DNA of 64,000 bases from Escherichia coli. Its GTDB lineage: Bacteria > Pseudomonadota > Gammaproteobacteria > Enterobacterales > Enterobacteriaceae. The translations under genes were made by a program, and so were the position numbers. This document shows, piece after piece, positions 12,973 to 51,406 of this stretch. The notes beneath the pieces were generated by a model that was not told the origin of the DNA, ran no database searches, and saw nothing but the letters and a program-made list of their open reading frames with translations. How positions within the stretch are numbered: the stretch's first letter is position 1; every line of letters starts with the position of its first letter. The DNA is taken from NCBI RefSeq assembly GCF_003019035.1, contig NZ_CP027447.1; one strand, 5' to 3'.

Positions 12973-14976
12973 ATGTCCCGAAAAGACCTTGCCAATGCGA
13001 TTCGCGCACTCAGTATGGATGCGGTGCAAAAAGCCAATTCTGGTCATCCCGGCGCGCCGATGGGCATGGCCGATATTGCCGAAGTGCTGTGGAACGATTT
13101 TCTTAAACATAACCCTACCGACCCAACCTGGTATGATCGCGACCGCTTTATTCTTTCCAACGGTCACGCGTCGATGCTGCTCTACAGTTTGCTGCATCTG
13201 ACCGGTTACGACCTGCCGCTGGAAGAACTGAAGAACTTCCGTCAGTTGCATTCGAAAACCCCAGGCCACCCGGAAATCGGCTATACGCCTGGTGTTGAAA
13301 CCACCACCGGTCCACTTGGACAAGGTTTGGCGAACGCCGTCGGGCTGGCGATAGCAGAGCGTACGCTGGCGGCGCAGTTTAACCAGCCAGATCATGAAAT
13401 TGTCGATCACTTCACCTATGTGTTTATGGGCGACGGCTGCCTGATGGAAGGTATTTCCCACGAAGTCTGTTCGCTGGCGGGCACGCTGGGACTGGGCAAG
13501 CTGATTGGTTTTTACGATCACAACGGTATTTCCATCGACGGTGAAACCGAAGGCTGGTTTACCGACGATACAGCAAAACGTTTTGAAGCCTATCACTGGC
13601 ATGTGATCCACGAGATCGACGGTCACGATCCGCAGGCGGTGAAGGAAGCGATCCTTGAAGCGCAAAGCGTGAAAGATAAGCCGTCGCTGATTATCTGCCG
13701 TACGGTGATTGGCTTTGGTTCGCCGAATAAAGCAGGTAAGGAAGAGGCGCACGGCGCACCACTGGGGGAAGAAGAAGTGGCGCTGGCACGGCAAAAACTG
13801 GGCTGGCACCATCCGCCATTTGAGATCCCTAAAGAGATTTATCACGCCTGGGATGCCCGCGAAAAAGGCGAAAAAGCGCAGCAGAGCTGGAATGAGAAGT
13901 TTGCCGCCTATAAAAAGGCTCATCCGCAACTGGCAGAAGAGTTTACCCGTCGGATGAGCGGTGGTTTACCGAAGGACTGGGAGAAAACGACTCAGAAATA
14001 TATCAATGAGTTGCAGGCGAATCCGGCGAAAATCGCTACCCGTAAGGCTTCGCAAAATACGCTTAACGCTTACGGGCCTATGCTGCCTGAGTTGCTCGGC
14101 GGTTCGGCGGATCTGGCTCCCAGCAACCTGACCATCTGGAAAGGTTCTGTTTCGCTGAAGGAAGATCCGGCGGGCAACTACATTCACTACGGGGTGCGTG
14201 AATTTGGCATGACCGCTATCGCCAACGGCATTGCGCACCACGGCGGCTTTGTGCCGTATACCGCGACGTTCCTGATGTTTGTTGAATACGCCCGTAACGC
14301 CGCGCGGATGGCGGCACTGATGAAAGCGCGGCAGATTATGGTTTATACCCACGACTCAATTGGCCTGGGCGAAGATGGTCCTACGCACCAGGCTGTTGAG
14401 CAACTGGCCAGTCTGCGCTTAACGCCAAATTTCAGCACCTGGCGACCGTGCGATCAGGTGGAAGCAGCGGTGGGCTGGAAGCTGGCGGTTGAGCGCCACA
14501 ACGGACCGACGGCACTGATCCTCTCCAGGCAGAATCTGGCCCAGGTGGAACGTACGCCGGATCAGGTTAAAGAGATTGCTCGTGGCGGTTATGTACTGAA
14601 AGACAGCGGCGGTAAGCCAGATATTATTTTGATTGCCACCGGTTCAGAGATGGAAATCACCCTGCAAGCGGCAGAGAAATTAGCGGGAGAAGGTCGCAAT
14701 GTACGCGTAGTTTCCCTGCCCTCGACCGATATTTTCGACGCCCAGGATGAGGAATATCGGGAGTCGGTGTTGCCTTCAAATGTTTCTGCCCGCGTGGCAG
14801 TAGAAGCGGGTATTGCCGATTACTGGTACAAATATGTTGGTCTGAAAGGGGCAATTGTCGGGATGACAGGTTATGGGGAATCTGCTCCGGCGGATAAGCT
14901 GTTCCCGTTCTTTGGCTTTACCGCCGAGAATATTGTGGCAAAAGCGCATAAGGTACTGGGAGTGAAAGGTGCCTGA
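12973..14976 (+). CDS. tktB: Transketolase 2
   Basis: 667 aa from the ATG at 12973 preceded by GGAG; TPP-binding motifs ([12 protein letters not shown]). Confidence 0.95.
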
Positions 14977-14994
14977 TGGTGATCGCCGGATGCT

Positions 14995-15045
14995 GTATGT
15001 TCCCCTCACCCTAACCCTCTCCCCAGAGGGGCGAGGGGACGGTCC
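14995..15045. repeat. GC-rich imperfect inverted-repeat intergenic element downstream of tktB (possible terminator or REP-like repeat)
   Basis: CCCCTCACCCTAACCCTCTCCCCAGAGGGGCGAGGGGAC between convergent tktB and ypfG. Confidence 0.45.
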
Positions 15046-15078
15046 GTGCGCTTTTTAGGGGCGCATCTGGGATTTTGT

Positions 15079-16122
15079 TTAACGGGTGATCCACAACGTG
15101 GGCCAGGCGTCTGGCCCATGCCAGTTATCGCAGGTGGGTTCTGCGGCGTAACGCACCAGGCGAAAACGCTGACCGTCAAAGCGCCAACGCGCCTGAATGC
15201 CACAATCGCTTAATCCGCGCCCTTTCGCTAAGGTCACCAGTTCACGCGATTTCTCATCAAATGTTGCGTTCATCAGTTCCAGTTCATTCGTCTCCTGACC
15301 GTTGTTGAACGGCAAACGCAACCGAACCGGGCGCGAGGCTAGCGGCTTTTTACGCGACACAATCCATGCCAAATCAATGGTGTTATAGGCCCCTGCCTCA
15401 CAGCTAATCATCATCAGTGCTTTATCATCGGTCAGCGCAGTGACATTCACCTCACGACGTAACGGATCAAGCGAGCAGCGCAGACCATTCATCCGCCAGT
15501 TTCCATAATCCAGCAAATCGTTGCGTTCTTCGAGTGAGAGTGGCGTCGGCGTTGGGTTAACCACCGCGACCTCTTTCAGCGCAGGCGCAGGCGGTACGCT
15601 GAGCGGCGGTTCGTCCCCTTTCTTTATCCACGCGGTTTCACTGCCAACGCGCTTTTGCTGAGCATCAATAAACAACAACGCCGCTTTTAAGCCATTCAGA
15701 GAAATGGTCTGATTGCCATCGCGTAAGGTGATTGCCTTCCCTTCCTGAATCAGCTGCAAAAACGCGGTGATGGTTGCCGTATCATCGGTTACTAGTAACC
15801 ATGGTGAAATCCGCCACTTGTCACCACTTAACGCCAACGGCTCACCATCTAACAGCAGCCGTGGCGCTATCTCCCCTTCAGACGCATCCGGCGACTTCAA
15901 CCCGCCGCGCTCAATACGTAAAACGGCATCGGTATGCGCCCCGGCGCTGCGGCTCAGGGTCATCACCAGTCCATTATGATCGCCCGTATTGCGCGCTACA
16001 CAGAAATTTTGGTTATTACAGGTAACCTGCCAGTCGGAAAACGCCCGTTGCGCTGGTGCCGCCCACACCAAAGACGTCGGCAACAAAGCGAAAAAAAAGA
16101 GAAGGAAAATGCGATAGCGCAT
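15079..16122 (-). CDS. ypfG: DUF1176-family periplasmic protein YpfG
   Basis: 347-aa ORF with N-terminal signal peptide (MRYRIFLLFFFALLPTSLVWAAP); K-12 gene order. Confidence 0.88.
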   Translation of the reverse strand: MRYRIFLLFFFALLPTSLVWAAPAQRAFSDWQVTCNNQNFCVARNTGDHNGLVMTLSRSAGAHTDAVLRIERGGLKSPDASEGEIAPRLLLDGEPLALSGDKWRISPWLLVTDDTATITAFLQLIQEGKAITLRDGNQTISLNGLKAALLFIDAQQKRVGSETAWIKKGDEPPLSVPPAPALKEVAVVNPTPTPLSLEERNDLLDYGNWRMNGLRCSLDPLRREVNVTALTDDKALMMISCEAGAYNTIDLAWIVSRKKPLASRPVRLRLPFNNGQETNELELMNATFDEKSRELVTLAKGRGLSDCGIQARWRFDGQRFRLVRYAAEPTCDNWHGPDAWPTLWITR

Positions 16123-26312: not shown

Positions 26313-26378
26313 GTGGCCGGATAAGGCGTTAACGCCGCATCCGGCCATGATGCCTGATACAGTCTTATCAGACCTACC
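26313..26378. repeat. REP/BIME palindromic repeat elements
   Basis: GCCGGATAAGGCGTTAACGCCGCATCCGGC followed by a second REP-like GCCTGATACAGTCTTATCAGACCTAC. Confidence 0.8.
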
Positions 26379-30984: not shown

Positions 30985-31035
30985 GTGTGCCGGATGTTTT
31001 GTCGGATGCGGCAAGAACGCCTTATCCGACCTACG
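30985..31035. repeat. REP-like palindromic repeat in the purC-bamC intergenic region
   Basis: GCCGGATG...GTCGGATGCGGCAAGAACGCCTTATCCGACCTAC. Confidence 0.6.
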
Positions 31036-51330: not shown

Positions 51331-51365
51331 TGCCGGATGCGACGCTTGCCGCGTCTTATCCGGCC
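51331..51365. repeat. REP palindromic repeat
   Basis: TGCCGGATGCGACGCTTGCCGCGTCTTATCCGGCC between convergent yfgD and hda. Confidence 0.8.
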
Positions 51366-51406
51366 GACGAATACTATGGGTGCATTTCCGACAATAAACG
51401 TCTTGT

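Follow-up and report, generated by a model that had tools for sequence, protein, structure and literature searches.

Among the dispersed intergenic repeats of Escherichia coli, the element described under the name BoxC has been named more than once. The name BoxC is cited to the envM (fabI) sequence paper of Bergler et al. (1992), the element was later called PIT (Hoyne et al., 2000), and it was renamed TMECO by Holder et al. (2015; PMC4666352), to whose account we owe this history and the other statements attributed to it below. BoxC is short and confined to intergenic positions, its length being quoted as 56 bp (PMC2267715); its architecture comprises one pyrimidine block and two purine blocks, and the published consensus reads CCCTCNCCC-N3-6-GGGNGAGGG-N3-GGGNGAGGG. 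Strict TMECO copies number 23 in strain K-12 and only two in strain CFT073, and a G/C-rich motif is described from more than 260 prokaryotes (Holder et al., 2015). The same paper found no link of TMECO to the function of neighboring genes, to distance from them, to orientation or to operon position, and our literature search found no later functional work on BoxC or TMECO.

The copy considered here lies between tktB and ypfG in a stretch of 64,000 nt of E. coli DNA (contig NZ_CP027447.1, assembly GCF_003019035.1), which is referred to as the window. This region of the window is identical to the corresponding region of CFT073 and orthologous to that of K-12, and the annotation of both strains agrees with the earlier reading of tktB and ypfG as convergent genes. 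Their stop codons (tktB, 14974-14976 on the + strand; ypfG, 15079-15081 on the - strand) enclose a spacer of 102 nt (14977-15078). The initial annotation had described a GC-rich imperfect inverted repeat after tktB, and such a repeat is present: its arms at 15001-15011 and 15029-15039, of 11 nt each, are 91% complementary. Within 14995-15045, the core sequence of the inverted repeat occupies 15002-15040 as written on the + strand of the window, and a 25-mer of this core was matched once in the window and in none of 100 shuffles.

The palindrome that follows tktB proved to be an unexceptional BoxC copy (BoxC being equivalent to PIT and TMECO), which bears out the earlier suggestion that it might belong to an intergenic repeat family other than REP. 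On the - strand, 15003-15037 is an exact match to the published consensus, and this is the single match in the whole window (0 in 100 shuffles); the 36-nt core is identical to TMECO nos 9, 16, 19, and 22 of K-12, an identity confirmed on the DNA of NC_000913.3, with no. 9 being the copy that adjoins fabI (envM). The same copy has already been catalogued, and the element itself is therefore already known: it is TMECO no. 35 of CFT073 (NC_004431, 2852458-2852423), listed with the same sequence in Supplementary Table S8 of Holder et al. (2015). Nor is the motif unique in the genome, although only two strict copies are found in CFT073-type strains: blastn searches with the element-containing spacer gave a median of 17 and a maximum of 29 places per genome, nearly all of them chromosomal, in 5,425 of 5,426 complete E. 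coli genomes. All of the defining features of BoxC/PIT/TMECO that are amenable to sequence tests were found in this copy, namely the consensus, identity to accepted members, dispersed intergenic copies and the extended unit (Table 1). A search of Rfam at a permissive threshold returned only sub-threshold noise, the top-scoring match being to a frameshift element of eukaryotes, without relevance here (22.3 bits; threshold, 40).

Table 1. Features of the tktB-ypfG region of the window; sequences of the BoxC parts are read on the - strand.
Feature	Position	Strand	Basis
tktB (transketolase 2), upstream convergent gene	12973-14976	+	CFT073 and K-12 annotation; ORF list
REP-derived fragment CGCCGGATGCTG, 12 nt, just past the tktB stop codon	14984-14995	+	Allele comparison
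Extended BoxC unit, ~60 nt	14998-15057	-	Column counts over nine copies
36-nt BoxC/TMECO core, type A "mm", CCCTCGCCCCTCTGGGGAGAGGGTTAGGGTGAGGGG	15002-15037	- (G-rich strand)	Consensus match; K-12 copies; TMECO no. 35
Block 3, GGGTGAGGG	15003-15011	-	Sequence and consensus
Loop 2, TTA, between blocks 2 and 3; defines type A	15012-15014	-	Sequence and subtype definition
Block 2, GGGAGAGGG	15015-15023	-	Sequence and consensus
Loop 1, CTCTG, between blocks 1 and 2	15024-15028	-	Sequence and consensus
Block 1 (pyrimidine block), CCCTCGCCC	15029-15037	-	Sequence and consensus; "mm" subtype from the G at its variable position
Locus-specific spacer, BoxC-type allele only	15058-15071	+	Alignment; 41-nt right-hand segment in 840 genomes only
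ypfG (DUF1176 protein), downstream convergent gene	15079-16122	-	CFT073 and K-12 annotation; ORF list

Since similarity among nine copies (the K-12 loci and the window copy) runs past the core, the unit in the window can be placed at about 14998-15057, a length which fits the 56 bp quoted for the family. In the G-rich orientation the core has a 5' flank of ~20 nt (aaaaagcgcacggaccgtc) and a 3' flank of ~5 nt (gaaca), each weakly conserved from copy to copy; in the alignment of the nine copies the flank columns are mostly common to at least six of the nine. The right-hand segment of the spacer (15038-15078, 41 nt) was found by blastn once per genome in 840 genomes, and only with the BoxC-type allele described below. 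A reading of this segment as lying wholly outside the repeat was rejected, as the copy alignment places its first ~20 nt in the weakly conserved BoxC flank, which blastn missed in other copies because it is too degenerate.

When folded as RNA, the 39-nt core of the inverted repeat has a predicted energy of -20.4 kcal/mol (z -2.07) for the + strand and of -25.4 kcal/mol (z -2.55) for the - strand, both measured against dinucleotide shuffles. Folds of the whole spacer show no gain in stability over shuffled sequence on either strand (z about -1.1). A long-range stem is possible between 15022-15032 and 15061-15071 (82% complementary), followed on the + strand by AUUUUGUUU at 15072-15080. Part of the REP fragment (14986-14994) would likewise be able to pair with GCATCTGG at 15063-15070, near the ypfG stop codon, and this pairing would close the entire spacer into one structure, again followed by AUUUUGUUU; such a spacer-closing structure may mean nothing, because the fold is no better than that of shuffles (z -1.1).

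That the repeat differs from the canonical REP sequences present elsewhere in the window was also correctly observed. The core is without the REP arms GCCGGATG... and ...CTTATCCGGCCTAC, and REP-like 3' arms (CTTATCMGGCCTAC, one mismatch) mark REP/BIME elements at 26364-26377, 31021-31034, and 51355-51368. The one trace of REP beside the core is the 12-nt fragment past the tktB stop codon, and the core itself holds none of the REP sequence of the alternative allele of this spacer.

This alternative allele became apparent when the spacer was compared across 5,426 complete E. coli genomes, which carry it in two forms: ~15% are BoxC-type and ~85% REP-type (4,585 genomes), and together these account for essentially all genomes. 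At least 80% of the window spacer is carried by 830 genomes and its right-hand segment by 840, and the BoxC-type allele is well conserved where it is present, with 677 best matches at least 99% identical. The BoxC form is seen in the window strain, CFT073, ETEC4068, and GN06156, and the REP form in K-12, O157:H7, CE10, S3, C325, and L6-21 as representative strains. Both forms have a common left flank up to GCCGGATGCTG and a common right flank from ATTTTGTTTAA, which in the window begins at 15072. Between these flanks the REP form contains a 14-nt tandem unit, TGCCGGATGCTGAT, built from the REP 5' arm and present in one to four copies, and a REP 3' half (GCGTCTTATCCGGCCTACA) that is duplicated in many strains; strain L6-21 shows this arrangement at 237-373 of its fetched locus. 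The CGCCGGATGCTG fragment is common to the REP-type allele, where it belongs to the 14-nt unit, and the window thus keeps one partial unit. A stretch of the REP-type allele, ATGTCCCCGCC, might be a remnant of BoxC (ATGTTCCCCTCACCC), but it is too short to trust.

The split between the two forms does not simply track clonal descent, because two strains which we take to belong to phylogroup B2 differ, ST131 having a short REP form where CFT073 has BoxC, and because the BoxC form also occurs in strains with flanks only ~97% identical to those of the window. How frequent each form is across the species is new relative to the parts of PMC4666352 drawn on here. The existence of a two-form spacer fits the published link of these repeats with local intergenic variability; since REP sequences are dynamic in their own right, REP may account for this variability to the same extent as BoxC.

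Outside E. coli, relatives were reached through homologs of YpfG (n = 4), and neither the BoxC nor the REP form of the E. coli spacer was present in any of the four. In Salmonella enterica the tkt-ypfG spacer is 422 nt long (2545-2966) and includes an extra called ORF of 76 aa, which gave no Pfam hit; in Citrobacter freundii tkt and ypfG are convergent and overlap by 11 nt; one relative has a spacer of 18 nt without any repeat, and one has a different REP adjoining the ypfG stop codon. As each of these four relatives differs and neither form is present, the content of the spacer is not conserved.

The behavior of BoxC at another site could be followed at zntA-tusA, where nearly every genome has a copy in the orthologous position. 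We found no empty zntA-tusA site that would give a clean comparison of filled and empty states, from which the ends of the element and any target duplications could be read. Decay of the copy in some lineages takes one of two forms: block 1 carries a point mutation (CCCTCGCTCC), or block 3 is gone and three REPs have been inserted. Strain JCM 5491 is an example of the latter, with three clustered REPs (a BIME) inserted just upstream of the copy, at ~190-400 of its fetched zntA-tusA locus. This picture agrees with the published view, in which copies persist and mutate in place and do not move. Of the nine type A copies examined, six have convergent neighbors (tktB/ypfG, zntA/tusA, yjdP/phnP, tauD/hemB, frlR/yhfS, and fimH/gntP), a share which, in this small and non-random sample, seems above what spacers drawn at random would give.

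A consensus scan of species-representative genomes, in which the taxa listed lie outside E. coli and its close relatives, found the identical three-block core in at least four taxa; among the matches listed these are Mitsuaria chitosanitabida, a Methylomirabilota MAG, Candidatus Contendobacter, and another MAG. For M. chitosanitabida, at least 145 exact consensus matches were counted in the fetched loci. The three blocks are exact in these taxa, and the loops and flanks are specific to the lineage (in Mitsuaria, the first loop is GCTTGC and the 3' flank tcttcgggct). Adjacent opposite-strand pairs among the Mitsuaria matches listed all have the same relative order, with the block-1 ends inward (27 of 27), and are separated by spacers of 30-272 nt which are not conserved; four of five pairs in K-12 stand in the order opposite to that of Mitsuaria. 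Only a few combinations occur at the variable position of the three blocks, the same ones in E. coli and in Mitsuaria, and no compensatory pattern of covariation was seen at this position in either. The occurrence of three exact blocks in distant bacteria, with varying loops and flanks, hints at a constraint which a description of BoxC as a functionless repeat leaves unexplained.

Taken as a whole, the evidence shows the tktB-ypfG repeat to be a catalogued copy of BoxC. Beyond that identity, we infer that it is probably a structure-prone piece of DNA in a neutral spot between convergent genes, without a dedicated part in regulation there. According to the literature, the isolated G-rich strand folds in vitro into a hairpin or an intrastrand triple helix and is able to stall DNA polymerase in vitro. 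The proposal is that such folding, arising transiently in the course of replication or repair, underlies the unusual strain-to-strain variability of the spacers which hold these repeats, and the tktB-ypfG spacer, BoxC-based or REP-based, is one such variable case. In Holder et al. (2015; PMC4666352), circular dichroism and NMR indicate a triplex for type A and type A mm oligonucleotides, and more variability is reported around TMECO motifs than at control sites; the same paper detected a stable triplex neither in double-stranded DNA nor, by DMS footprinting, in vivo, for which reason the structural mechanism of instability is a proposal and not a demonstration.

Two functions had been suggested for the repeat when it was first annotated, termination of transcription and stabilization of mRNA, and the former is not supported. 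A GC-rich hairpin between convergent genes is what would be expected of an intrinsic terminator, possibly a bidirectional one serving both the tktB and the ypfG transcripts, and the + strand has TTTTT at 15052-15056 as well as AUUUUGUUU after the possible stem formed by 15022-15032 and 15061-15071. However, the core hairpin has no U-run directly after it in either orientation (there is no T-run within 2 nt of the stem); on the + strand the nearest, the TTTTT just mentioned, starts 12 nt past the stem, and on the - strand AACAUACAGC comes next after the stem. A consensus scan of 14700-15400 detected no promoter-like and no terminator-like site, the fold of the whole spacer is unremarkable on both strands, and BoxC elements are reported to have shown neither promoter nor terminator activity and to have left RNA polymerase unaffected (Hoyne and Maher, 2002, as cited in Holder et al., 2015), all of which renders a terminator at this site highly improbable. 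A stabilizing role would operate at the level of RNA, with a 3' hairpin in the tktB mRNA, the ypfG mRNA or both blocking 3'-to-5' exonucleases and so protecting the upstream message. The element does lie in the 3' region of both convergent genes, and the hairpin predicted for each transcript is stable relative to shuffles (z -2.1 and -2.6); to this can be added the six of nine copies between convergent genes and the fact that the alternative allele at the site is a REP. A role in stabilizing mRNA is established for REP elements. Against such a role for BoxC, copies decay by point mutation and deletion with no visible compensation, the spacer in the relatives outside E. coli is without the hairpin element, and the family is described as having no positional bias with respect to genes or operons, with more copies upstream than downstream of ORFs (PMC4666352). 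On balance we regard RNA stabilization by this copy as rather unlikely.

The breadth of the three-block core would have an explanation if the motif were the recognition site of a putative protein or mobile-element system, by analogy with REP and the RAYT transposases, in which case binding would conserve the three blocks. Unrelated bacteria carry the identical core in abundance, while loops and flanks go with the lineage (the Mitsuaria copies, the Methylomirabilota MAG, and Ca. Contendobacter), and the adjacent opposite-strand pairs among the Mitsuaria matches listed are uniform in relative orientation. We know of no partner protein or mobile system for the BoxC motif, however, and in E. coli the copies occupy orthologous positions, where they degrade without showing recent movement; Holder et al. 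(2015) found no association with transposons, phages or plasmids, so that a recognition site appears extremely improbable. A broader version of the argument would have the three-block motif kept across phyla by a putative recognizing factor or by a structural role in RNA or DNA, with the BoxC/REP dimorphism representing a functional, non-neutral strain difference in the processing or stability of the 3' ends of the tktB and ypfG mRNAs; this too we hold to be very unlikely. The preferred reading remains that of a BoxC copy in a neutral position.

The practical value of the assignment is a correct label, BoxC/TMECO in place of terminator. It carries little weight as a discovery, given that the family is cited back to 1992 and the copy stands in a published list, and the window copy gives no special leverage on the function of the family or on the breadth of conservation of the core. 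Because a clean two-form site, BoxC or REP, segregates in E. coli, the spacer does offer a convenient natural pair for testing the effects of these repeats on neighboring transcripts or on local mutation.

With respect to known systems, the repeat has in common with intrinsic terminators a stable GC-rich stem-loop past a stop codon, but it is a BoxC copy without a U-tract at the stem, and the family members that were tested had no terminator activity according to the literature. The resemblance to REP/BIME elements is closer: each is a short, imperfect palindrome rich in GC, which is dispersed between genes and often lies at their 3' ends, and a REP fills the same tktB-ypfG site in the alternative allele. 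BoxC nevertheless constitutes another sequence family, made up of three blocks where REP has two arms, with far fewer copies and without a known associated transposase or bound protein. Compared with the TMECO set of K-12, the difference concerns the site, since tktB-ypfG has a REP-type spacer in that strain and is not a TMECO site there. Compared with BoxC/PIT/TMECO at large, the element itself shows no difference, and shares with the family the same three-block consensus, the type A "mm" subtype, the conserved flanks and the intergenic position.
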